From an uncultured Methanosarcinales archaeon (GTDB lineage Archaea; Nanobdellota; Nanobdellia; Woesearchaeales; SM23-78): 61,427 nt of DNA. Position 1 is the first letter of the stretch, and every line of letters starts with the position of its first letter. The stretch is from contig CAYGYA010000065.1 of the NCBI GenBank assembly GCA_964354085.1, forward strand, positions 1 to 61,427, read 5' to 3'. Both the position numbers and the translations under genes were made by a program. Below are positions 211-41,917 of the stretch, in pieces. Below the pieces are notes generated by a model. The model saw only the letters and a program-made list of their open reading frames with translations, had not been told where the DNA came from and did no database searches.

Positions 211-369
211 TTCACGCAGTGAATGAGGGTTCAGAAATTCTGTAGGAATTTCTGTTACCCGCATATTTTAAGTAACTGTGGGCTCAAAAATCCGTCAGGA
301 TTTTTGTTTGCCCGCAGTTTTAGGAAAACAAGGGCTCAAAAATCACCAAGTGATTTTTGTTTGCCCGCA
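211..369 (+). repeat. Three tandem 53-nt units, each a long imperfect hairpin ending in CCCGCA
   Basis: Units are 211-263, 264-316 and 317-369. Each has GGGY, T, an 8-10 bp A/T-rich stem, a 3-6 nt loop, the return stem, TT(T), RCCC, then GCA. U1 is GGGT(227-230)/ACCC(257-260) with CAGAAATTC/GAATTTCTG. U2 is GGGC(280-283)/GCCC(310-313) with CAAAAATC/GATTTTTG. U3 is GGGC(332-335)/GCCC(363-366) with CAAAAATCAC/GTGATTTTTG. Confidence 0.85.
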
Positions 370-465: not shown

Positions 466-3400
466 ATGGTTGATAAGAGAGTAGAGCATGATTTTATACT
501 AATGTCAGTTGTTGCTGTTGTTGCAGTAATAGCTATGTTTTCTTTGATTAGCCCTGCAAGCTTAGGAGACATAAGCATCACAGGTAATGTTATTGGCGAG
601 GCTAGTGCTATTCCGCCGCCTCTTTGTGAGGACACTGATGTGGGTCTGGATTATTCTACTAAAGGACGTTTAAGCGGGGATATACCTAGTGGATTCTATT
701 CAGAAGACCGTTGTTTCATGAAATATTTCCTGAGAGAAGTTTATTGTAAGGATAATCGTGCTGCTTCTCATACAACCTATTGTCGAACTGGCTGTGAAAA
801 TGGCATGTGCAAGGAAAAAAAGATTCAACAGAAATGCGGCGATGGTGTTCTCATTGGTTGGGAAAGGTGTGACGGCGCTAATTTGGGCGACAAGACATGC
901 AATAGCCTAGGATATATTGGCGGCGCTCTTAGCTGCACAAAATCTTGCATATTGAATACGAGTGGCTGCACAAAACCAGTATGCGGCAATAATATTAAAG
1001 AGGCTTATGAGGTATGTGATGGCAATGACTTAAATAACAAGACATGTAGAAACTTTGGCTTTATTGGAGGCACATTAAAATGCTCGAACTGCCAATATAA
1101 CATGACTAGTTGTGTCAAGACATGCTCTTCTGATTCAGAATGCGGTGTGCGTGTTTGTGCTGGAGTTAAGGTGCGTGAAACTTGCGAAAATGGTAGGTGT
1201 GTCTTTAAATCAAGTTGCACAGCTACTAAATGCGCAAAAGAAGGAGAATATGCTAGCGGAACAGTAGCACCCGAATATAGGGTTAGTTGTTGTGAAGGAT
1301 TAAAAGGATTTTATCCTTACCCTGATCGTGTAGGTGGAGGGCCTTTATGCTATAATCCTGAAAAAGGAACTCCCGTCTGCAAGAACCAGGGAACAAGGTC
1401 AGAAGGATGGTATTATCCTAAGACAGGCACATTGCTAAAGTATGAGACTTGTGGAGGAGGAGTTCGCTGTGGTAATAACATATGCGAAACAGGAGAAGCA
1501 GATAGTTGTCAAACACAATGCCCGCCTGATAGGGTTTGTGCTGCTGTTTGCATAATAGGAACCTGCCCCAAGGATTGTGCTAATACTGTTGTATGCACTG
1601 ATTCTGATGGGGGGAGGGATTTCAACCTGAAGGGCACAGTTAAAAAAATAGTTGATGGAAAACTGATGGAAGTAACAGATTATTGTATACTTGAACCATC
1701 TCCTGAATGGCCTGAGAAATATAACCTTGTTGAATACACTTGTGCAAACACGAATGAAAACATAAATTCAATATTTTATACTTGCCCTAGTGGCTGCAGG
1801 GACGGAGCCTGTGTGAATACTAGGTGTGCAAAAGAAGGAGAATATACGAGTGGCACAGTTGCGCCTGAGTACCAGTATGGCTGCTGTGAAGGATTAAGAA
1901 GATTTGATCAATATTCACAAGTTGATATAAGATATAGGCCTATCGGAGGCGGAGACTTGTGCTATGACCCTAATAAAGGGGATCCTATTTGCAGGAACTT
2001 AGGAACAAGTTCAGAAGGGTGGTATTATTCACGAACTGGAGGATTATTGAAATTGGGCAAATGCCCAACAGTGACTGTAGGCTGTGGAAATGGACTAATA
2101 GAACCTGGCGAAGAGTGTGATGGTTACAACTTGAATGGGATGACTTGTTCCGCGTTTAACTTTAGTGGAACAGTCGAATGCACAAACTGTAAACTAAATT
2201 TAAGCAAATGCACGCATGCTATGAGATGCAATACATACAATGATTGCCTACAGATTGCGCTTGCCCCCGATGGTTACAGAGAGTGCAATGGGAAAGATGC
2301 ATGCAAAGTAGGTGGAGGATACCTTTGTGAGAACAATACATGTGTTCTTCACAAGAGGATATATGATTGCCTAAATTGCACTGATGGATGCTTAGCTGTC
2401 GCTTACCCTATTGGCGCTGCTTGTGTGCCACCTGTTAATTATTGTGGCAATGGCATGATGAATCCTGGCGAGCAGTGTGACCCAGCTATGCCTTCTATAT
2501 CTATTCAGTGCAGCATGATTAGTGCTAACTTTACATCAGGCATTGTTACTTGCGACAAGAACTGTAAATATAATACTGCCAATTGCGTAGGCCCTGTTGG
2601 TGGCCGTTGCGGTGATGGTACTGTCACTGTTCGCAATATTGAGGGCTTTAATGAACAGTGTGATGGCAGTGTCAATAATAAGACTTGCAGAAACTTCGGG
2701 TTTATAATGGGTACTTTAACATGTTATGGTTGTCAATATAATACTTCCCGATGCTCTAATGAGCCTAGATGTGGCGAAGGAATCAAGAATCTTGCTGAGG
2801 AATGCGACGGCATGGATCTGGGAGGTGCTAGCTGTGCTTCATTAGATTTTTCTAGTGGATCAATAAGGTGCGCTTCTAATTGTACCATTGATAAGAGTCA
2901 TTGCTTGCCTTATAATTACTGTGGTAATAGGATTGTTGAGGCTGGTGAAGATTGCGACGGCGCTGCTAATGTAACCTGTCGGGCTTTAGACTTTGCTGGC
3001 GGGTCTATAAGGTGCAGCCTTAATTGTACTTTTGATACTAGTCATTGTTTGCCTTATGATTATTGTGGTAACTACTTAGTTGAGCCTGGCGAACAGTGTG
3101 ATGGCAGCACTAACACTGCTATTACTTGTGGTAAGTTTGGCTTTGAGAGCAGTCCTGGTTCTGTGATTTGTAGGAATTGTTATTATAATACCAGCCGCTG
3201 CACAGGTCATGCTGTTGGTGCTTGTGGTGATGGGGCTTTAGAACTTGGTGAGCAATGCGATGTTGGCATTAGCAGAATGATGTGCGCAGACTTTGGATTC
3301 ACAGGAGGAACAATTAGCTGTAATTTACAGACTTGTAAGTATGACACAAGCAAATGCGTAAATGGCATGCCTTGCAACACAAACATGGATTGCCCGCAGA

Positions 3401-5205
3401 TAGCAACTATTCCTGAATACATGGAATGTTACGGTAGTTCTCTTTGCAGAGTTGGTGAAGGCTATGATTGTGTGAACAGTAGATGCACCCTTAATAAGAA
3501 ATATTATGATTGCACACGTTGCCCTAATGGCTGCGGAAATGGCGCTTGCCTACCTATACCTGTTTCTGAATGCACAACAGCTACTGATTGCAAAGTAGAC
3601 CCTTGCGGAGAAAGCATGTGCATGCCTGTAAATGAGATAACTCTTCCGTGTGCTGTTTTACCTGCAGACAAAGTGGCTGATTACTGCACTTGCGAGAATA
3701 ATAAATGTGTTGGTCATAAGAAACCTTTACCTTATTGCGGTGATGGTTTTGTTAACCAGGCTGGTGAAGAATGTGATGGCATTGTTAGTCTGCCTTGCCC
3801 ATCTCATATTTCATTCTCAGGCTATCCTACTGGTACTTTGCGCTGCACTAATGACTGCAAATTTGATTACAGCAATTGTACAGATAATCCACCACCAACT
3901 CCTCGTTGCGGTGATGGCATTATTCAGAAGCCTAATGCTGTTGGCTTTAGTGAGGAGTGTGATGGAGACATTTTTATTGAACCTCTGAATATTTGTCCTC
4001 ATGGCTCTACTGGTGGCCCTGTATCTTGCAAAGATTGTAAATGGGATTACAGTTTATGCAAGCCTATTCCAGAACCTAGGTGTGGAGACGGCATTAGGCA
4101 GACTTTGCTGGGTGAGAATTGCGATGGCCCTGACTTTGGCGGCGAAACTTGCTTGTCTTTAGGTTATGCCGGAGGCAGTTTAAGTTGCACCTCTGGTTGC
4201 CTTATTGATACAACTGGCTGCACTTGGCCTCCGAGTATTTGTGGTGATGGTATTGTCAGCAAGCCTAATGATAATGGTGTTAATGAAGATTGTGATACTG
4301 TTGTAGTCGGCATGGGCTGTCCTTCAGAGTATTATGGCGGTTCTGTGCTTTGCACTAGAGGCTGCAAATATGATTACAGTAATTGCACTACTGTCCAACC
4401 TCCTCGTTGTGGTGATGGATATGTTAATACCCCTAACGAGCAATGCGATGGTGGTGACTTAAATGGGCAGAGTTGCGTGAGCCGAGGTTTCACTAGAGGC
4501 GATTTGGCGTGCGGTGGCAACTGCATGTTTGATGAGTCTTACTGTACTACCGATACTCCGCCTAGATGTGGCGATAACTTTGTTAATCAAGACTTTGAGT
4601 ATTGTGATGGCACTGATTTAAATGGAAATAGTTGTGAGAGCCGTGGTTTTGTTAGCGGAACCCTAAGATGCACAGGCAGTTGCGCATTTGACCCAAGAGA
4701 ATGTTCTATGTGCAACAACAACGGCGTATGCCAGCCAAGAACGGGTGAGACTGCTGATAATTGCATGGGAGATTGCTTTATTTCACCAATTGGAGTGGCG
4801 CTTTACCTTAACCCTGGCTCAATAGATGTTGCTACTGGAGACACTGTTAGCTTTGACATCGATGTATCAAACGTGAACAGCCTTTTTGGCTATCAGTTTG
4901 ACCTTAATTATGACCTTGAGTTGTTAGAGTTCATTGGATTGGAAGATGGAGACTTCCTTAGCACTACCCAGTCTCGTCCTTTCTGCGTTGAGTACACAGC
5001 ATCTCCTGGCTTGGTTGAGAATGTGGCGTGCACAAAACTAGGTGGAAGCGGAGTAAGCGGCAATGGCTTGTTAAAAAAGGTAAACTTTAGAGCTCTTGCC
5101 AGAGGGAATCCTAGTAATATAGTACTCTCAAATGTCAAGCTAGTTGATGCCACTGCAGCAACAATATCCGCACAGGTATTGTCCGGCCAGGTTAGTATTA
5201 GCTGA
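466..5205 (+). CDS. Giant (1579 aa) membrane-anchored, cysteine-repeat surface protein with a C-terminal cohesin domain
   Basis: SD-like GAGGGTGGG lies upstream of the ATG. One N-terminal TM helix (FILMSVVAVVAVIAMFSLI). About 15 copies by eye of CG[DN]G-x(4-9)-GE-x-CDG...C..GF.GG.L.C...C..[DN].S.C, which resembles the Myxococcus-type cysteine-rich repeat. Two copies each of two other Cys modules (CAKEGEY...CCEGL, and M[RP]CNT..DC.QIA). The cohesin-like tail contains VSFDIDVSNVNSLFGYQFDLNYDLELLEF. Confidence 0.9.
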   Translation: MVDKRVEHDFILMSVVAVVAVIAMFSLISPASLGDISITGNVIGEASAIPPPLCEDTDVGLDYSTKGRLSGDIPSGFYSEDRCFMKYFLREVYCKDNRAASHTTYCRTGCENGMCKEKKIQQKCGDGVLIGWERCDGANLGDKTCNSLGYIGGALSCTKSCILNTSGCTKPVCGNNIKEAYEVCDGNDLNNKTCRNFGFIGGTLKCSNCQYNMTSCVKTCSSDSECGVRVCAGVKVRETCENGRCVFKSSCTATKCAKEGEYASGTVAPEYRVSCCEGLKGFYPYPDRVGGGPLCYNPEKGTPVCKNQGTRSEGWYYPKTGTLLKYETCGGGVRCGNNICETGEADSCQTQCPPDRVCAAVCIIGTCPKDCANTVVCTDSDGGRDFNLKGTVKKIVDGKLMEVTDYCILEPSPEWPEKYNLVEYTCANTNENINSIFYTCPSGCRDGACVNTRCAKEGEYTSGTVAPEYQYGCCEGLRRFDQYSQVDIRYRPIGGGDLCYDPNKGDPICRNLGTSSEGWYYSRTGGLLKLGKCPTVTVGCGNGLIEPGEECDGYNLNGMTCSAFNFSGTVECTNCKLNLSKCTHAMRCNTYNDCLQIALAPDGYRECNGKDACKVGGGYLCENNTCVLHKRIYDCLNCTDGCLAVAYPIGAACVPPVNYCGNGMMNPGEQCDPAMPSISIQCSMISANFTSGIVTCDKNCKYNTANCVGPVGGRCGDGTVTVRNIEGFNEQCDGSVNNKTCRNFGFIMGTLTCYGCQYNTSRCSNEPRCGEGIKNLAEECDGMDLGGASCASLDFSSGSIRCASNCTIDKSHCLPYNYCGNRIVEAGEDCDGAANVTCRALDFAGGSIRCSLNCTFDTSHCLPYDYCGNYLVEPGEQCDGSTNTAITCGKFGFESSPGSVICRNCYYNTSRCTGHAVGACGDGALELGEQCDVGISRMMCADFGFTGGTISCNLQTCKYDTSKCVNGMPCNTNMDCPQIATIPEYMECYGSSLCRVGEGYDCVNSRCTLNKKYYDCTRCPNGCGNGACLPIPVSECTTATDCKVDPCGESMCMPVNEITLPCAVLPADKVADYCTCENNKCVGHKKPLPYCGDGFVNQAGEECDGIVSLPCPSHISFSGYPTGTLRCTNDCKFDYSNCTDNPPPTPRCGDGIIQKPNAVGFSEECDGDIFIEPLNICPHGSTGGPVSCKDCKWDYSLCKPIPEPRCGDGIRQTLLGENCDGPDFGGETCLSLGYAGGSLSCTSGCLIDTTGCTWPPSICGDGIVSKPNDNGVNEDCDTVVVGMGCPSEYYGGSVLCTRGCKYDYSNCTTVQPPRCGDGYVNTPNEQCDGGDLNGQSCVSRGFTRGDLACGGNCMFDESYCTTDTPPRCGDNFVNQDFEYCDGTDLNGNSCESRGFVSGTLRCTGSCAFDPRECSMCNNNGVCQPRTGETADNCMGDCFISPIGVALYLNPGSIDVATGDTVSFDIDVSNVNSLFGYQFDLNYDLELLEFIGLEDGDFLSTTQSRPFCVEYTASPGLVENVACTKLGGSGVSGNGLLKKVNFRALARGNPSNIVLSNVKLVDATAATISAQVLSGQVSIS
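4780..5202 (+). other. Cohesin-like domain (C-terminal 141 aa of the giant protein)
   Basis: Motif FGYQFDLNYD..LLEF...GDFL plus the beta-rich tail. Paralogous to the N-terminal domain of the ORF at 6473-8452 (YGFQFDLSYDSNVLEVVSVNEGTF). Confidence 0.7.
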
Positions 5206-5225
5206 TTTCCAGAGAGTGAAACACT

Positions 5226-6446
5226 ATGAAAAAGATTTTAATAAGTTGGAGTATCTTGTTGTTTTCACTTTCAGTGTTTGTGAATGCAGCAATTGTCGCT
5301 GACCATGCCTCTGTGGCTCAGTTCGATAATATTCCCCAGGTATGGATTCAGGCAGCAAAAGATAATTTAGCAATCGCTTATGGCCATACTTCTCACGGAA
5401 GCCAGCTGATTACTGGCATGAACATGCTTCTTACAGAGAAAGGCTCACTTTACTCATGGAATAATGGAGGAACTGGCGGTGCTCTTGACTTGAGAGATTA
5501 CGCTGGCGATTTTGGTGGCTTGCATATAGCTAACGATCTCGGATACCATTATGATTACTCTACGAATTATACTGCTTGGGCAGATGCTACGAGAGCCTAT
5601 CTTTCTCAGCATCCTGAGACGAACGTTATTATCTGGGCATGGTGCTGGCAGATGGAAACATCCGAGGAATACATAAACACTTACTTGACATTGATGCATC
5701 AGTTCGAGCACGATTTCCCTAATGTTAAGTTCGTCTATATGACTGGACATGTGACTGAGGGTCAAGCATTATGCACTGATCCGAGGTTATGGGCTTGTGT
5801 CAATAATTTGCGCGCCACTCAGATACGTAATTTTGTGAATGCCAATAACGGTATACTTTATGATTTCTCTAATATTGAGAGCTATGATCCTAGTGGTAAT
5901 TATTTTGGCGATAAGCTTGTGGATGCTGCATGCAATTATGACAGTAACGGAGACGGTACAACTGACAAGAACTGGGCTACGGATTGGTGCAGTACTCATT
6001 CCTGCGTTGCCTGTCCTGGTGGATGCGCTCACTCCCAATGCTTGAACTGCTATATGAAAGGCAAGGCTGTCTGGTGGCTATGGGCGAGGCTTGCTGGTTG
6101 GGACGGAAGTTCTGGAACACCAGCCTGCGCTGATAATGACCAGGATGGTTATGGAGTTGGCTGTGCCCTTGGTTCTGATTGCAATGATAATAATGCTGCT
6201 ATTCATCCTGGAGCTGCTGAAATCTGCGGAGATGGCATTGACCAGGACTGCAATGGCCAGGACTTATCCTGCCCTCAGACTGTTAGCGGCGATTTAAATG
6301 GTGATCTTAAAGTTGATATTGCTGATTTGGTTATTGTAGCTACTAATTTTGGCAAAGTGAATTTTGATTCCAGAGCTGATGTTAATAAGGATAATATGAT
6401 TGACATAACTGATTTGGTCTTTGTAGCAAGAAGATACACAGGATAA
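5226..6446 (+). CDS. Secreted protein: unknown enzyme-like N-terminal domain, Cys/Asp-rich putative metal-binding motif, C-terminal type I dockerin
   Basis: Signal peptide MKKILISWSILLFSLSVFVNA. Motif DQDGYG..C..DCNDNNAAIHPGAAEICGDGIDQDCNG. Last 54 aa carry the duplicated Ca-binding dockerin repeat GDLNGDLKVDIADLV...ADVNKDNMIDITDLV. Confidence 0.85.
   Translation: MKKILISWSILLFSLSVFVNAAIVADHASVAQFDNIPQVWIQAAKDNLAIAYGHTSHGSQLITGMNMLLTEKGSLYSWNNGGTGGALDLRDYAGDFGGLHIANDLGYHYDYSTNYTAWADATRAYLSQHPETNVIIWAWCWQMETSEEYINTYLTLMHQFEHDFPNVKFVYMTGHVTEGQALCTDPRLWACVNNLRATQIRNFVNANNGILYDFSNIESYDPSGNYFGDKLVDAACNYDSNGDGTTDKNWATDWCSTHSCVACPGGCAHSQCLNCYMKGKAVWWLWARLAGWDGSSGTPACADNDQDGYGVGCALGSDCNDNNAAIHPGAAEICGDGIDQDCNGQDLSCPQTVSGDLNGDLKVDIADLVIVATNFGKVNFDSRADVNKDNMIDITDLVFVARRYTG
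6282..6443 (+). other. Dockerin type I module
   Basis: Two EF-hand-like segments, D-L-N-G-D-L-K-V-D-I-A-D-L and D-V-N-K-D-N-M-I-D-I-T-D-L, about 20 aa apart. This is the canonical dockerin pattern. Confidence 0.75.
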
Positions 6447-6472
6447 GGTTTAAATGCTAGAGTTGAAACATC

Positions 6473-8452
6473 ATGAAAAAGATATTTTTTAAACAAAAGG
6501 CTTCTTACTTTATTATTACCATATTAATATTCTTAATTATTGTTTGCAGCGCATCTGCTTTAGTCCAGGTATCTCCTTCTTCCTCTAACCTAAGCCTTTG
6601 CCCCAACGATACTTTTTCAATTAATATAACTATAAGTGGCGTGGCAGATGTTTATGGTTTTCAGTTTGACTTGAGCTATGATTCAAATGTTCTTGAAGTA
6701 GTTAGTGTTAATGAAGGAACTTTTATCAATGTCAGCAGCCAGTACAGGACTTTCTGGATAGAGCCTGACCTTTCAACTTCAGGGCTAATAAAGAATGTTG
6801 TGTGCTCAAGATTAGGAAATGTGAGCTCAAGTTCTTCTAGCGGAGTGCTTGCAACCATAATCTTCAAGCTTAAAAACACTACAAGCTATCCTGCAACAAG
6901 CAATCTTGTGCTGAATAACCTAAAACTCTCAGACATAAACAGCGTTCTATTAGATAATACAAAACAAGATGGTCAGGTAATTATCCCATCATGTTCTTGC
7001 GCTGACGGAGATACTAGAAGCTGCACTGCTAGTAATGGTTGTTCAGGATTAAGAACTTGCACTGGAGGAGCCTTTGGTAATTGTGTGAGCGCTACTCCTT
7101 ATTTTTGTGATAGCAATTGCGACGGAACTAGTGAATGCTCTGTTAATAATTGCACTACTTGCCAATGCACAGGCTCTGTTTCTAGGAGTTGTAGAACAAG
7201 CGGTGGATGTGGTGGCAGAACATATTGTGTTAATGGCAGTTGGAGCGATTGCCAGATTACACACTATTACTGCGATTATAGTTGTGACGGGGTAAATGAA
7301 ACATGCAGTGATACCCCTTGCCCCTCTACTTGTGTTTGTATTGAAGATTGGGATTGTGATGCCTGGAGCACTTGCTCAGGAGGCAATCAGGAGAGGTCAT
7401 GTACTGACCTTAATGATTGCGGTACAGATGACAATATGCCTTCTGTTAGTAGGAGCTGCTCAACTGGTAGCAGTGGCGGAGGCGGTGGAGGAAGTGGCAG
7501 CAGTTTACCTCCTCCTTGTACTGAAGCCTGGAGTTGTGATGAGTGGTCTTCTTGCCAAACAGATGGTTTTAGCAGAAGAAGATGTAATGATGCTAATAAT
7601 TGTGGAACTTCGATGAGCAAGCCACAGGAATTAGAGATTTGCTTTTATGAAGGTGATTGTAATGATTGGATCATGAATCAGGATGAAACAGGCATTGATT
7701 GTGGAGGAAGCTGCCCAACGCTTTGCCCTGAGCCTGAACCAGAGCAGGTTCTTGCCGGCCCCCCGCAACTAAATATTATTATTGAACCTGTAAGCGCTGA
7801 AATTCTTGACCAGTATGTACTAAAAATAACTGTAGAGAACCAAGGGGAGGGTGAGGTTAATGATTTGAAGATTATTGCTAATAAATGGAGCGGAGAGCCA
7901 GGAGTTATTCAGAGTATTATGCCTGGCATGAGCGAGCAAAAAGGATTGGTGCTTAGCTTGCCAGCAAACCTTGATGAAACATCAGTGGATATCCAGGTGG
8001 TGCAAAATGGCGTTGTTATCGTAGTCCAAACTGTTCCTGTAACCTTATCTATTCCTCTGTTTAGCGTTAAGATTAACAAGGATATTGAGACTGGCAGGAC
8101 TTATGAAACAATTATTGTGGATAACAGAAATAATGCTCCAAGAAAATTAGAGATTGATGTTACAATAAACAAGGGCAAAGAGACCTATCTCATTGATACT
8201 GGCAAGACCTATGACATAGGAGAGAACCAGATATTTAACCAGGTTGATTACTTGTATCAGGACCTTCCAGCTGGGAAATACGAGATTAAATCTTTGTTCT
8301 ATGAGAACGGGCAAAAAATAGGTGAAGCAACTTCTTTTGTGGTTCTTGGCGGCAATAAAAGAGCATTTAACGTCAAATACTTATTTTACTTCATGCTTAT
8401 TGTCATAGTTGGAATTTCAGGCTATGTATTTTTTATGAGCCAGAAAAAATAA
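6473..8452 (+). CDS. Surface protein: signal peptide, N-terminal cohesin, Cys-rich modules, CARDB-like domain, C-terminal TM anchor
   Basis: Cohesin-like region at about 6563-6988 (FSINITISGVADVYGFQFDLSYD). Duplicated Cys modules include two W.C..WS.C..G...R.C.D.N.CGT units. One GIDCGGSC motif. CARDB-like segment LKITVENQGEGEVNDL. Terminal TM helix YLFYFMLIVIVGISGYVFFM. Confidence 0.85.
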   Translation: MKKIFFKQKASYFIITILIFLIIVCSASALVQVSPSSSNLSLCPNDTFSINITISGVADVYGFQFDLSYDSNVLEVVSVNEGTFINVSSQYRTFWIEPDLSTSGLIKNVVCSRLGNVSSSSSSGVLATIIFKLKNTTSYPATSNLVLNNLKLSDINSVLLDNTKQDGQVIIPSCSCADGDTRSCTASNGCSGLRTCTGGAFGNCVSATPYFCDSNCDGTSECSVNNCTTCQCTGSVSRSCRTSGGCGGRTYCVNGSWSDCQITHYYCDYSCDGVNETCSDTPCPSTCVCIEDWDCDAWSTCSGGNQERSCTDLNDCGTDDNMPSVSRSCSTGSSGGGGGGSGSSLPPPCTEAWSCDEWSSCQTDGFSRRRCNDANNCGTSMSKPQELEICFYEGDCNDWIMNQDETGIDCGGSCPTLCPEPEPEQVLAGPPQLNIIIEPVSAEILDQYVLKITVENQGEGEVNDLKIIANKWSGEPGVIQSIMPGMSEQKGLVLSLPANLDETSVDIQVVQNGVVIVVQTVPVTLSIPLFSVKINKDIETGRTYETIIVDNRNNAPRKLEIDVTINKGKETYLIDTGKTYDIGENQIFNQVDYLYQDLPAGKYEIKSLFYENGQKIGEATSFVVLGGNKRAFNVKYLFYFMLIVIVGISGYVFFMSQKK

Positions 8453-8496
8453 AAGGTTAATGAATAAAACAAATATTAAAATGAGGTGATTTTAAA

Positions 8497-8832
8497 ATGG
8501 CATATGTGTTTGGCATTGAGGGAGTTCCTATCTTTGAAATGTTACTAGTGCTATGCGTGCTCCTGTTATTAGGATTGTTCTTTATCCTGCTTGAGCTCAG
8601 GAAACTTACTTCCCTGATTGGCAAGGAAAAAGCTGACTTGAAACGCTTTGAAGACGACCTTGCAGAGCTAGAGAAAGACACAGGCAAGAAGTCCACAGAT
8701 GAAATCGTCCAATATATTAAGGGAGCGGTGGCAAAAGGAATGCCAAGGGCTCAGATAGAGGTTTCCCTTATCCAACGCGGATGGTCTAAGAAGGAAATAG
8801 ATACCATACTTGATCAAGTAGGTGGAAAATAA
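8497..8832 (+). CDS. Small membrane protein (one TM plus charged coiled segment), function unknown
   Basis: ORF with hydrophobic N-terminus LLVLCVLLLLGLFFILL. A T-rich stretch follows the stop. Confidence 0.5.
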   Translation: MAYVFGIEGVPIFEMLLVLCVLLLLGLFFILLELRKLTSLIGKEKADLKRFEDDLAELEKDTGKKSTDEIVQYIKGAVAKGMPRAQIEVSLIQRGWSKKEIDTILDQVGGK

Positions 8833-29543: not shown

Positions 29544-29621
29544 TTAAGTCTTTGCCAAAGACTTAACAGAAACAAATTAAGGAGGGTGTGCCAAAAACAT
29601 TTAGGTTTTTGTCAACCCTCC
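29544..29621 (-). terminator. Two perfect hairpins immediately downstream of the thiolase-like gene stop
   Basis: TTAAGTCTTT-gcc-AAAGACTTAA (29544-29566). GGAGGGT..CAAAAAC-atttag-GTTTTTG..ACCCTCC (29581-29621), beginning 3 nt after the stop codon at 29625-29627. A T5 run is embedded in the stem. Confidence 0.5.
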
Positions 29622-29624
29622 GAA

Positions 29625-30653
29625 TTATCTCCTGATAATAATGGCTCCTGATGAGCAGTCATAGTTGGCTGTTACCAAGGCTATGATGTCAAGGTTTCTT
29701 AGATTAGGGTTTTTCAGGGTATAATGTAGGTTGTATAGAATGTCTGCATGGCCCAAGTGACCGTTTTCTGATGAGGTGTTAAAAATCCTGTCAGGAGTGA
29801 TGTTGAGCTTTTTGCACAGCCTCTCTGTCTCTTCTAGTGAAAGCTGGGTTTTTATGAAATGGTTTATGTCAGAAACATCAAGATTTATTGATTTCATGCA
29901 TGACTCAATCACCTTGTAGGAATTCTCAACCCACCTTTCTGTTAGCTTGCTCATGCTCTGCTTTTGCCTTATGGTCTTAACCACAGCTATGCTCCTAAAC
30001 TTTTCAAAAACCCTGTGTAGCTTGCTATCCTTGGCAAGGCTTTCTGCTAATAATTCATCAATAAAGCTAGTATTATGGTCGATCACAAAATTAGAAGTAA
30101 GTATCTTGTTATTGTTAGCTTCCTTGCTTAGCACTATGGCTGCTGCTCCATCACCAAATATCATGTTTCTAACTCTTGCAGCTCCTCCTCCAAAAAGGTA
30201 CAGCTCATCAAACTCCTGGGCAGCAACTATGATGGCATTTTTAGTAGAGTAATTGTTTTTAATCATATCATTGGCTATCTGAATGCCTAGCAGGCCACCT
30301 ATAAGTCCTCCTTCAATGTCAAAGCCATAGGCTTCTGTCGCATTGATCTCCTGGATGATTTGCGAAGATATGGTTCTTGCGGTTTTCTGCCTTGTGATCC
30401 CTTTGCAGAATATTACCACATTAATGTCCTTAGGGCTCAAATTTGAGTCGCGCAAGGCTTCCTCTGTGGCCCTGATTGCCATGAAGAGCTCGCTTTCACT
30501 AGGGCTGGCCACATGTATTCTTTTTATGCCATGGTCCTTAAGAAGCTGAAGATAATTAAGATGATATTTCTGTGCGAGCTGCTTGACCTCTACTTCCTGC
30601 CTTGGGAAATAGGCTCCGCTTCCACTGATTCCAATCATATTTGAAGTTGGCAT
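29625..30653 (-). CDS. Thiolase-fold (KAS III / HMG-CoA synthase-like) protein lacking the expected catalytic Cys
   Basis: FabH-like N-terminus and FGDGAAAIVL motif. The nucleophile site reads FDIEGGLIGGLLG, with Leu where FabH has Cys by eye alignment to D.SAACSGF. Confidence 0.5.
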   Translation of the reverse strand: MPTSNMIGISGSGAYFPRQEVEVKQLAQKYHLNYLQLLKDHGIKRIHVASPSESELFMAIRATEEALRDSNLSPKDINVVIFCKGITRQKTARTISSQIIQEINATEAYGFDIEGGLIGGLLGIQIANDMIKNNYSTKNAIIVAAQEFDELYLFGGGAARVRNMIFGDGAAAIVLSKEANNNKILTSNFVIDHNTSFIDELLAESLAKDSKLHRVFEKFRSIAVVKTIRQKQSMSKLTERWVENSYKVIESCMKSINLDVSDINHFIKTQLSLEETERLCKKLNITPDRIFNTSSENGHLGHADILYNLHYTLKNPNLRNLDIIALVTANYDCSSGAIIIRR

Positions 30654-39987: not shown

Positions 39988-40869
39988 ATGAATGTTTTCA
40001 TAGAAAGGTACAAGCAACTAGGTGAAGAATTTAACCTGGAAGAAATCAATCTTAAGCCTGCTCTTAGGATTAACACTCTTAAGATAAAAGATGCTGAGCT
40101 TATCAAAAGGATTAATGCCAAGCTTACCAAGATCGCTTTCCTGAAGCACGGTTATTATTATGAGTCAGATTATGCTGTTGGAGCAATGCCTGAATACTTG
40201 CAGGGCTATTATTATTTGCAAGAAACAGCCAGCCAGTTGCCTGCGGAAATACTTATGCCAGAAGAAAATGATTTGGTGCTGGACATGTGCGCTGCTCCTG
40301 GAAGCAAGACAACACAACTAGCAATGATGATGAACAACAAAGGAAGAATAATCGCTCTTGAGCTTAACAACCCCAGGCTTCCAAGCTTGCAGAACAACCT
40401 TGAAAGGTGCGGAGTAACAAACACTATTGTTTACAAGAAAGATGCACGTTATGCAGATGACTTGAATATGGAATTTGACAAAATACTTCTTGATGCTCCT
40501 TGCTCTGGTAATTTTGCAAATGATGAGAATTGGTTCGAGGAACGAAAATTAGAAGATTTAAGACAAATGAGCAAGACTCAAAGGCAGCTCTTGGAATCAG
40601 CACTTAATGTTCTCAAACCAGGTGGAATCATAGTTTATTCAACCTGCTCCTTAGAGCCAGAAGAGAATGAGATGAACATTGACTGGCTATTAAAAACCCA
40701 TAAAAATGTTTCTCTTGAAAAGATTAATCTTGAAATAGGAGCCCCTGGTCTGACGAATGTTTTTGGCCAAGAATTAGATAAAGAAATATCAAAATGCAAA
40801 AGGTTATGGCCTCACAAGGCAGGGACACAAGGGTTTTTCTTAGCGAAGCTGAGAAAAGCTCAAAAATAG
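39988..40869 (+). CDS. NOL1/NOP2/Sun-family RNA cytosine-C5 methyltransferase
   Basis: DMCAAPGSKT (SAM), DAPCSG and YSTCS catalytic Cys motifs. Confidence 0.85.
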   Translation: MNVFIERYKQLGEEFNLEEINLKPALRINTLKIKDAELIKRINAKLTKIAFLKHGYYYESDYAVGAMPEYLQGYYYLQETASQLPAEILMPEENDLVLDMCAAPGSKTTQLAMMMNNKGRIIALELNNPRLPSLQNNLERCGVTNTIVYKKDARYADDLNMEFDKILLDAPCSGNFANDENWFEERKLEDLRQMSKTQRQLLESALNVLKPGGIIVYSTCSLEPEENEMNIDWLLKTHKNVSLEKINLEIGAPGLTNVFGQELDKEISKCKRLWPHKAGTQGFFLAKLRKAQK

Positions 40870-40940
40870 AATATTTTTGTTGTTCTTTATTGCTAAGATT
40901 CGTAAAATTAATAAAACCCTAAATTAACTTACTATTTGAG

Positions 40941-41648: not shown

Positions 41649-41703
41649 TAAAATAATTTTTCTTTTTTTTGTTTTTTATATATGAATTGAGATTAGGAAA
41701 GTA

Positions 41704-41815
41704 GGACAGCTTTCCGGGTCTCCCACACGTAAGTGCAGTACGCCCCGGAACGTGTGCGTGCTTAACTTCTGTGTTCGAAATGGGAACAGGTGTAACCACG
41801 CAGCTATGACCGTCC
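41704..41815 (-). rRNA. rrf: 5S ribosomal RNA
   Basis: The reverse complement reads GGACGGTCATAGCTGCGTGGTTACACCTGTTCCCATTTCGAACACAGAAGTTAAGCACGC...GGGAGACCCGGAAAGCTGTCC. It has the conserved CCCATTTCGAAC...GAAGTTAAGC core and terminal helix GGACGG/CTGTCC. TATA-like TTTTAAAT lies about 25 nt upstream. Ends are accurate to about +/-3 nt. Confidence 0.9.
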
Positions 41816-41917
41816 AATATCCCAGGAGATATTTACCATTTAAAAAGGTTATTGTTTTTTCGGTTTATATTCTGCTTTAGTTAAATTTAAATAGAATAAT
41901 GCTTATTTCTCTTATTT

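Follow-up and report, generated by a model that had tools for sequence, protein, structure and literature searches.

The stretch analysed here, the 61,427 nucleotides (nt) of archaeal contig CAYGYA010000065.1 (hereafter the window), begins with a tRNA-Leu(CAA)-like gene (83-210, + strand) that is immediately followed on the same strand by three tandem hairpin units (211-263, 264-316 and 317-369). These units, and the family of tRNA-linked repeats to which they belong, are the subject of this analysis. A repeat search placed the three units at start-to-start spacings of exactly 53 and 53 nt, and each of them ends in CCCGCA (258-263, 311-316 and 364-369), as does the tRNA-like gene. Tandem Repeats Finder reported no repeat for the window because the units are too divergent, and simple sequence searches of the window found no further unit copies. 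The units are not canonical tRNA genes, since ARAGORN found none in the window and the Rfam tRNA model missed 211-369 at E values up to 10.

All three units share one fold, which consists of a lower stem GGGY/RCCC, a single unpaired U on the 5' side facing UU or UUU on the 3' side, and an A/U-rich upper stem of 9-10 base pairs (bp) closed by a loop of 3-4 nt. The main hairpin of unit 1 (225-263, + strand) pairs G227-U230 with A257-C260, plus G225 with C262, and continues past the bulged U231 into the upper stem 232-241/245-254, followed by UU at 255-256 and the tail GCA at 261-263. Unit 2 (264-316, + strand) opens with a degenerate spacer (264-277), followed by the lower stem 278-283/310-315 (G-C, U-G, G-C, G-C, G-C, C-G), the bulge U284, the upper stem 285-293/298-306, UUU at 307-309 and the unpaired A316. 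Unit 3 (317-369, + strand) has the lower stem 332-335/363-366, the bulge U336, the upper stem 337-346/350-359, UUU at 360-362 and the tail GCA at 367-369. Extra small hairpins occupy the spacers of units 1 and 3. In unit 1, CAUUCAC-GCA-GUGAAUG (209-225, + strand), with a GNA triloop, is made of a 5-bp core and two further pairs that use C209 and A210 of the tRNA end, while the spacer hairpin of unit 3 is GUUUU-AGG-AAAAC (317-329). The minimum free energies of the 39-nt hairpins were -17.4, -22.5 and -17.2 kcal/mol for units 1, 2 and 3, with z-scores of -5.2, -6.8 and -4.9 against dinucleotide shuffles, none of 200 of which folded equally well.

Differences between the units are compensatory, with GGGT/ACCC in one place standing against GGGC/GCCC in another and CAGAA/UUCUG against CAAAA/UUUUG, and the upper-stem sequences differ as well. 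An earlier, sequence-only reading of this stretch had described three exactly 53-nt units of the form GGGY-T-stem-loop-stem-TT(T)-RCCC-GCA, with compensatory differences that can be read directly from the letters and with tails that copy the tRNA 3' end; the spacing and the folding agree with this description. It erred in placing a T5 run in each stem, since unit 1 has only TTTCTGTT and T5-G-T3 occurs in units 2 and 3, and it passed over the spacer hairpins of units 1 and 3.

The gene upstream of the units was read by eye and aligned to the intact tRNA-Leu(CAA) genes of four related loci (L016, L094, L083 and L096). The D-arm and anticodon arm (90-125, with the anticodon CAA at 116-118), a canonical T-arm (186-202), the acceptor 3' strand (203-209) and the discriminator A210 were recognised. 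Judged by this alignment, the tRNA-like gene named in the earlier reading is a tRNA-Leu(CAA) homologue, although it was called neither by Rfam nor by ARAGORN run on the whole window (ARAGORN calls it with relaxed settings) and its 5' acceptor strand is aberrant. That strand (83-89, GCGCCGG) fails to pair with the 3' strand CACCCGC at base pairs 4-6. No relative contains a counterpart of window nt 1-101, a segment that takes in tRNA positions 1-21, and homology to the relatives sets in at nt 102, the exact site of the D-loop intron in those genomes. The aberrant 5' end of the window is either genuine, the tRNA gene having been rearranged or pseudogenised at this site, or a chimera produced by assembly at the end of the contig. 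An insertion of about 45 nt in the variable arm (134-178, + strand), probably a non-canonical intron, has boundaries that are ambiguous by 3 nt, with CAG at both ends; it is common to L083/L095 and L096 and does not occur in the otherwise near-identical tRNA of L094 and L016. Hairpin structures and introns of this kind explain why standard tRNA finders miss such genes.

A degenerate hairpin pattern was scanned against representative genomes and metagenome contigs, and after removal of chance hits about 30 independent archaeal loci were found to carry the unit, the named relatives being Woesearchaeota or Nanoarchaeia metagenome-assembled genomes (MAGs). All copies in the family occupy the strand of the tRNA, immediately 3' of a tRNA-Leu or tRNA-Ala-like gene. 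The tRNA-Leu carriers span all five anticodons (CAA, UAG, CAG, GAG and UAA), and at three Nanoarchaeia-type loci the carrier tRNAs have G3-U70. This pair gives tRNA-Ala its identity, and these carriers are probably tRNA-Ala genes, their differing ARAGORN labels notwithstanding.

A covariance model (CM) of 33 units gave family members 50-78 bits. Among 72 control loci (521 kb), which were mostly bacterial tRNA-Leu loci with an identical 3' end and without units, taken from a tRNA 3'-end scan, a strong score was obtained only in L016, which has a true unit. The sequence-only reading had proposed a CM search as a check, and had named lack of conservation in related genomes as what would tell against the feature. 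In the window, a CM built from the relatives scored units 1, 2 and 3 at 71.6, 45.6 and 26.9 bits (E 4e-15, 7e-9 and 2e-4), with the unit 1 hit spanning 209-263, and only these three units scored well; the other matches at E<0.1 were weaker opposite-strand matches on the same palindromic units and one weak match at 40839-40887 (20 bits, E 0.011). Viral contigs, phage genomes and plasmids gave no unit match. At the gathering threshold, Rfam 15 reported only a 5S rRNA in the window and only tRNA in six related loci; at E values up to 10, positions 1-600 gave chance-level hits far under threshold. Literature searches found no description of such repeats. The feature is real, non-chance and conserved, and the units are confirmed as a lineage-specific structured repeat family of a Woesearchaeota/Nanoarchaeia-type DPANN subclade, which is undescribed as far as Rfam, the literature searched and general knowledge reach.

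The arrays hold 1-4 units at a tail-to-tail period of 42-54 nt (26 arrays), and their copy number turns over between relatives: three units are present in the window, four in L096, two plus the orphan spacer of a lost third in L083, and one in L094. The spacer of unit 2 is orthologous to that of the second unit of L083, and unit 3 has orthologues in the last unit of L096 and the sole unit of L094. The RNase J gene keeps synteny with tRNA-Leu(CAA); the protein of the window shares 73-84% identity with those of L016, L094, L107 and L114, and at this distance unit types were observed to recur across genomes. The type CAGAAAUUC/GGAAUUUCUG was found in window unit 1, L016, L061, L068, L083, L087, L108 and L120. 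Variation inside a type affects loops, spacers and the Y-R pair, and the stems remain intact, changing only in compensatory fashion. In one MAG, an identical spacer and unit were located at three different tRNA-Leu loci, which indicates intragenomic homogenisation.

Some family members have further peculiarities at their edges. At the metagenome loci L119 (190-240) and L120, CCA comes straight after the terminal unit (GCCCGCA-CCA...), which looks like an encoded CCA end, and a 72-nt insert with a GC-rich hairpin lies between the tRNA and the first unit; L119 also carries an extra orphan tail, UUACCCGCA, after its terminal unit. A Woesearchaeote without Leu units, L037, has a tRNA-His followed by two 98-nt tandem repeats (620-850), each with two hairpins and, at its end, 19 nt copied from the 3' end of the tRNA (ACAAUCCCGGGUACCGUCC), and a third partial repeat copy near position 1040. 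These tRNA-His repeats indicate that tandem duplication of 'tRNA 3' end + trailer' is a general process in the group.

To quantify conservation of the fold, pairs were counted in 35 distinct units in an N-padded in-register alignment, which was adopted because MAFFT on the bare hairpins mis-registered the units with a 3-nt bulge. With the within-unit fold, standard pairs occupied 95.5% of cells, compared with 83.9% in shuffles, and double-sided changes were observed in 95 cells, compared with 28.6; neither value was attained by any of 500 shuffles. When the 3' partner was slid by 1-3 columns, the paired cells dropped to 37-52%. The double-sided changes are located in five upper-stem pairs, in four of the five core pairs of the spacer hairpin and in the lower-stem Y-R pair, and RNAalifold, applied independently to an unfitted MAFFT alignment, recovers the spacer hairpin and the upper stem. 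Both the Y-R combination and the spacer had been left unconstrained when the units were collected. The Y of a unit pairs with the R of the same unit in 33 of 35 cases (21 C-G, 11 U-A and 1 U-G, with other combinations in 2) and with the R of the preceding tail in 15 of 35, which favours the within-unit fold. G-U combinations (46, with U2-G71 in 23 of the 35 units) exceed A-C combinations (9), and this excess points to a fold selected on the tRNA-sense strand. Sequence itself is conserved in the nucleotides of the internal loop, in the C-GNA-G loop and at the terminal A. The units thus conserve structure rather than sequence, as the comparison of the three window units alone had led the earlier reading to propose.

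The likeness to the tRNA end extends well into the stem of the unit. The lower stem, G-Y-G-G-G-Y/R-C-C-C-G-C plus an unpaired A, corresponds to base pairs 1-6 and A73 of tRNA-Leu (GCGGGUG/CACCCGC-A), and some units match the tRNA ends exactly (GCGGGU...ACCCGCA). All 35 aligned units, those at the ends of arrays among them, have the same terminal A. Overall, a unit consists of a small spacer hairpin with a C-GNA-G triloop and a two-tier hairpin, whose helices of 4-6 bp and 8-10 bp are split by a 1 x 2-3 internal loop and closed by a loop of 3-7 nt across the family. The internal loop, U on one side and UU(U) on the other, is conserved, and a helix based on CARAA/UUYUG follows where the T-arm would stand. 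In the Ala-type units, the same core hairpin is set inside a 7-bp acceptor-like stem, whose 3' strand is identical to that of the unit's own tRNA and whose 5' strand co-varies with it (GGAACCG/CGGGUCC and GGAACUG/CAGGUCC). This stem has A3-U70 in place of G3-U70 and an A/G mismatch at 4:69. The units were found to combine two marks of an acceptor mimic, a maintained helix of cognate acceptor sequence and an unpaired discriminator A73, and the family is best placed among tRNA-like, or acceptor-mimicking, structural elements that accompany tRNA genes.

The trailer of L062 folds into a four-way, cloverleaf-like junction (minimum free energy -50.4 kcal/mol, z -5.5). At L062 (222-326 and 1158-1274), L064, L067 and L098, tRNAs with G3-U70 are followed by a cloverleaf-like or minihelix trailer.

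Signals around the arrays are compatible with transcription together with the tRNA. Of 26 arrays, 17 have a T5-T8 run no more than 40 nt downstream of their last unit. In relatives, a TATA-like CTTATAAA precedes one or two '5' units' by about 30 nt. These 5' units stand between this promoter and the tRNA-Leu gene, begin with tRNA nt 1-13 (GCGGGUGUGCCGG), continue with a CAAAA...UUUUG hairpin and end in CACACC. Such 5' units were found at L083 (11237-11440) and L096 (2752-2822, minus strand), and also at L061, L065, L068, L093, L094, L097, L103 and L114. They equal the 5' part of the tRNA plus the first D-loop-intron hairpin and look like truncated copies of it; they also resemble the reverse complement of the 3' units, and the CM matches them on the opposite strand. 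The tRNA appears to be embedded in one transcript with structured leader and trailer modules, each copying the adjacent tRNA end, and the arrays are, on the arrangement of these elements, probably co-transcribed with their tRNAs.

Four unranked options had been offered for the units by the sequence-only reading: minihelix-like RNAs co-transcribed with the tRNA, a terminator or insulator, phased protein-binding sites, and scars of repeated integration. The first of these is the best supported, the second is partly tenable, and the last two are disfavoured. We tentatively favour the view, which we regard as possible but short of probable, that the units are co-transcribed tRNA-minihelix-like trailer modules that mimic tRNA ends, because it fits most of the evidence: the position and strand of the units, the selected within-unit fold, the acceptor mimicry including the 7-bp stem of the Ala type, the invariant discriminator and, for a transcription that is itself predicted, the T5-T8 runs after most arrays. 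The tRNA promoter would drive transcription of the array as part of the precursor, in which each unit would form, on its own, a minihelix resembling an acceptor stem, the -1 nucleotide being U, the +1 nucleotide G and the discriminator A. From what both enzymes are known to recognise, tRNase Z is predicted to cut after each ...GCA and RNase P before each G+1, treating the unit like a tRNA end. Cleavage would free the 3' end of the tRNA and cut the trailer into hairpins of about 48 nt and spacers of about 14 nt. Transcription would be ended by the T-rich 3' strands of some units and by the T-run after the array, and the arrays may grow and shrink through tandem duplication and deletion of a 'tRNA 3' end + trailer' unit. 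An origin of the units by duplication of the tRNA 3' end is likely.

tRNA-like structures serve as processing signals in MALAT1 mascRNA and in plant mitochondrial t-elements. Like these and like acceptor/T minihelices, the units have a terminal helix of acceptor sequence with the same polarity and an unpaired discriminator; as with mascRNA and t-elements, they would be part of a longer transcript near other genes, where recognition by RNase P and tRNase Z is expected, and the likeness extends to the four-way junction of L062. They differ in that they form tandem arrays directly behind the cognate tRNA, carry the U/UU(U) loop and a long A/U helix, are weakened at 2:71 (Leu) or changed from G-U to A-U at 3:70 (Ala), and have a processing that is predicted.

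Several observations weigh against the minihelix view. The units do not form the canonical acceptor/T minihelix, since they have 14-16 bp with an internal loop instead of a 12-bp coaxial stack and lack a 7-nt T-loop; resemblance to a T-stem and T-loop (UUCRANY) is limited to the 5' half, GGGUUCAAAA. Most units have U-G or an A/G mismatch at position 2:71. A competing 12-bp hairpin, formed by the tail, the spacer and the GUGGGY of the next unit, is thermodynamically competitive, and covariation separates the two folds at one position only. The search pattern and the finder demanded part of the upper-stem pairing, and the upper-stem rate is to that extent built in. Close relatives carry anywhere from 1 to 4 units and the terminal copies show decay, which fits weak or no selection on single copies. 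The tRNA-His trailer repeats of L037 copy 19 nt of the tRNA end and on inspection have no acceptor-like partner strand, which shows that duplication alone can yield repeats that 'end like the tRNA'.

A further step, which we consider quite unlikely, would make the units precursors of small stable acceptor-stem-mimic RNAs, released from DPANN pre-tRNA trailers and leaders and acting on proteins that read tRNA ends. Possible targets are the CCA-adding enzyme, RNase P, RNase Z, synthetases, acceptor-targeting toxins and viral factors, for which such RNAs may be decoys or buffers. Their weakened identity positions, which may be the U-G or A/G at 2:71 in the Leu mimics and the A-U in place of G-U at 3:70 in the Ala mimics, would prevent aminoacylation. 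If the units do give rise to processed RNAs, they would represent a new element in archaeal pre-tRNA maturation and a new family for RNA databases.

Foremost among the alternatives, and unlikely in our judgement, is that disruption of tRNA genes left the units behind as selfish or near-neutral by-products. They would then be partial tandem duplications of the ends of intron-rich tRNA genes, perhaps seeded by recombination with mobile elements as in the Caldiarchaeum model and tolerated because they are removed in normal end-processing, and their hairpin shape would be kept only since unstructured or mis-pairing trailers do harm. The carrier genes themselves speak for such a history. The tRNA-Leu genes of L083, L096, L074, L080, L061, L114, L100, L065, L086 and L102 contain 1-3 non-canonical introns each, located in the D-loop, variable arm or T-loop, and the intron helices echo the CAAAA/UUUUG theme, with exon-like duplicated segments inside. 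The composition of the 5' units from tRNA nt 1-13 and the first D-loop-intron hairpin, the identical spacers at three tRNA-Leu loci of one genome, the differences of close relatives in copy number and composition, with orphan spacers and decayed copies, and the tRNA-His trailer repeats all point the same way.

Integrative elements leave comparable traces at tRNA genes; the att of SSV1 is reportedly 44 bp long. In a published model, built on tRNA-Thr fragments of Caldiarchaeum, integration leaves direct repeats of the tRNA end and can add introns (Sugahara et al. 2012, PMC3293823), and the by-product account parallels it. As in SSV1 and Caldiarchaeum (PMC3293823), copies of the 3' end lie downstream and copies of the 5' end upstream of an intact tRNA, co-occurring with gain of non-canonical introns and heterogeneous among close relatives. 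The unit repeats differ in being 6-13 nt long rather than about 44, in being spaced by a conserved hairpin of about 45 nt rather than by a kilobase element, in having no recombinase gene among the open reading frames (ORFs) scanned in the first 26.7 kb, and in having a structure under purifying selection. The by-product account sits badly with the conservation of the units: at 73-84% RNase J identity the structure and a number of stem sequences are retained, the latter exactly, and sequence is kept in the nucleotides of the internal loop, in the C-GNA-G loop and at the terminal A; a nearby recombinase and mobile-element matches are also lacking.

Genome size bears on the same question. Genome reduction is established for DPANN archaea, and lasting junk at every tRNA-Leu locus of such small genomes would be unexpected; yet each tRNA-Leu locus examined in one subclade of these tiny genomes keeps 50-220 nt of structured, conserved repeats that copy tRNA ends, and unusually many non-canonical introns are found in the same genes. 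Should the units be by-products nevertheless, they would offer a rare population-resolved view of tRNA genes gaining introns, fragments and flanking copies, which bears on the old question of the origin of disrupted and split tRNA genes.

Also unlikely is a role of the units as terminator or 3'-end-stabilising hairpins, in which T5-G-T3 would end tRNA transcription, a nuclease-resistant 3' hairpin would insulate the surface-protein gene downstream, and the likeness to the tRNA end would be a by-product of origin. In the window, T5 runs upstream of the next promoter and after the tRNA occur only inside units 2 and 3, and two unit-like GC-clamped CAAAAA/UUUUUG hairpins are located at the 3' ends of protein genes (29575-29615, at a minus-strand gene, and 40839-40887). 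An internal T5+ run is present in 17 of 49 family units, which leaves the majority without one, and a T-run is missing from unit 1 and from the widespread 'CAGAAAUUC' type as a whole. A separate T5-T8 run comes after most arrays, and the ordinary gene ends of the window are bare T6-T8 tracts without hairpins. A consensus terminator scan of 1-700 did not flag the units, whose T-runs, lying inside the 3' strand of an A/U-rich stem, do not have the bacterial-type arrangement of a T-run placed right behind a G+C-rich stem-loop. The acceptor-like lower stem, the invariant A and the C-GNA-G spacer hairpin would also be left unexplained.

Oligo-T termination in archaea takes a run of at least 5 T on the non-template strand and requires no hairpin; the units resemble such terminators in the T5-G-T3 of units 2 and 3 and in the T5-T8 after most arrays, but many units have no T-run. 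Bacterial repetitive extragenic palindromic (REP) sequences and bacterial interspersed mosaic elements (BIMEs) are short imperfect palindromes in arrays in 3' untranslated regions, with compensatory stem changes and proposed roles in 3'-end stability and termination. The units share with them the arrays of short imperfect palindromes and the compensatory stem evolution, whereas REPs occur genome-wide in alternating orientation and are linked to RAYT transposases, and the units are found only at tRNA flanks, in one orientation, and copy the tRNA end.

Improbable, to our mind, are elements that act as DNA, be they integrase att sites or decoys, single-strand hairpins for transposases or recombinases (IS200/IS605-, REP- or attC-like), or phased protein sites. 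Each unit does repeat the tRNA 3' end, the classic att region, and the 5' units approximate the reverse complement of the 3' units, so that inverted hairpin elements flank the tRNA. The spacer loop GCGAAGC matches d(GCGAAGC), a motif known for unusually stable DNA mini-hairpins, and the unpaired T in the stem recalls the ends of IS608-type elements. Against these likenesses, the common tail of the Leu units is just 6-8 nt long, no integrase, transposase or reverse transcriptase domain was detected in any ORF scanned in the first 26.7 kb, viral, phage and plasmid matches are absent, strong-scoring units are confined to tRNA flanks, and the large excess of G-U over A-C favours the tRNA sense strand. 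The attC cores R''/R' (RYYYAAC/GTTRRRY) were unmatched by inspection, and the integron attC reading was rejected on that ground. Phased protein-binding sites are disfavoured by the variable period of 42-54 nt, by the sense-strand bias and by the compensatory stem changes, which binding to double-stranded DNA would not need. Neutral integration scars are disfavoured by the short tail, by the missing domains and mobile-element matches, and by a structure kept at 73-84% RNase J identity.

Archaeal bulge-helix-bulge introns (PMC4033280, PMC4090602) occur in the same genes with the same CAAAA...UUUUG helix and exon-like duplicated segments, and the units probably share an evolutionary origin with them, from which they differ in lying outside the mature tRNA and in missing the second bulge. 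The D-loop of L100 provides a textbook example, a 16-nt bulge-helix-bulge intron (GGUC-AAA-CC...GG-GACC-AAA-CGGG), and a bulge-helix-bulge reading of the units was rejected by comparison with it, the units having a single bulge on the 3' strand. That the units are splicing substrates, with an EndA site removing the trailer or joining an alternative 3' exon (RCCCGCA) in place of RNase Z, is very improbable, for although a 3-nt UUU bulge stands directly 5' of the outer-helix 3' strand as at a bulge-helix-bulge 3' splice site, and genuine D-loop introns of these genes (e.g. L100) have CAAAA/UUUUG as their inner helix, the second 3-nt bulge four bp away on the 5' strand is missing from what is a 1 x 2-3 internal loop under a continuous helix, and the tail R covaries with the Y of its own unit rather than with tRNA position 6. 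C/D-box and H/ACA guide RNAs were rejected as well, GUGAAUGA being no C box and D box, pseudouridylation pocket and K-turn being absent.

Downstream of the array, and outside it, an A/T-rich conserved promoter/5' untranslated region (388-465, + strand, ACAUUUUUAUAC...) is 91-94% identical in L083/L095 and L096, and from its TATA-like sequence it is the putative promoter of the giant cohesin-domain surface gene that starts at 466. This gene belongs to an 8.4-kb cluster of cohesin/dockerin surface-protein genes (466-8832) located between the hairpin array and the RNase J gene. The cluster is present in L094, L107 and L114 and absent from L016 (6393-6476), where RNase J directly follows a single unit. 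An integrated island was considered for the cluster and rejected, since its far boundary has no copy of the tRNA end, no integrase was found and other relatives contain it.

Hairpins with CAAAAA/UUUUUG were rejected as the usual terminator of this genome, most gene ends being bare T-runs. The orphan GC-clamped hairpin at 29575-29615, GGAGGGUGUGCC-AAAAAC...GUUUUUG-UCA-ACCCUCC (minus strand, -16.1 kcal/mol, z -3.8), lies just past the stop of the minus-strand gene 29625-30653, contains GGGUGUGCC (tRNA-Leu nt 3-11) and resembles the 5' units of relatives. At 40839-40887, a degenerate look-alike of the unit, in which a GAA-triloop spacer hairpin precedes CAAAAAUA-GAA-UAUUUUUG-UU, overlaps the stop of the ORF 39988-40869. 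The gene content of the window is archaeal, including PCNA, CofD, RNase J, NFACT and, with no linked 16S or 23S gene within the window, an isolated 5S rRNA gene on the minus strand at 41701-41817 (75.7 bits).

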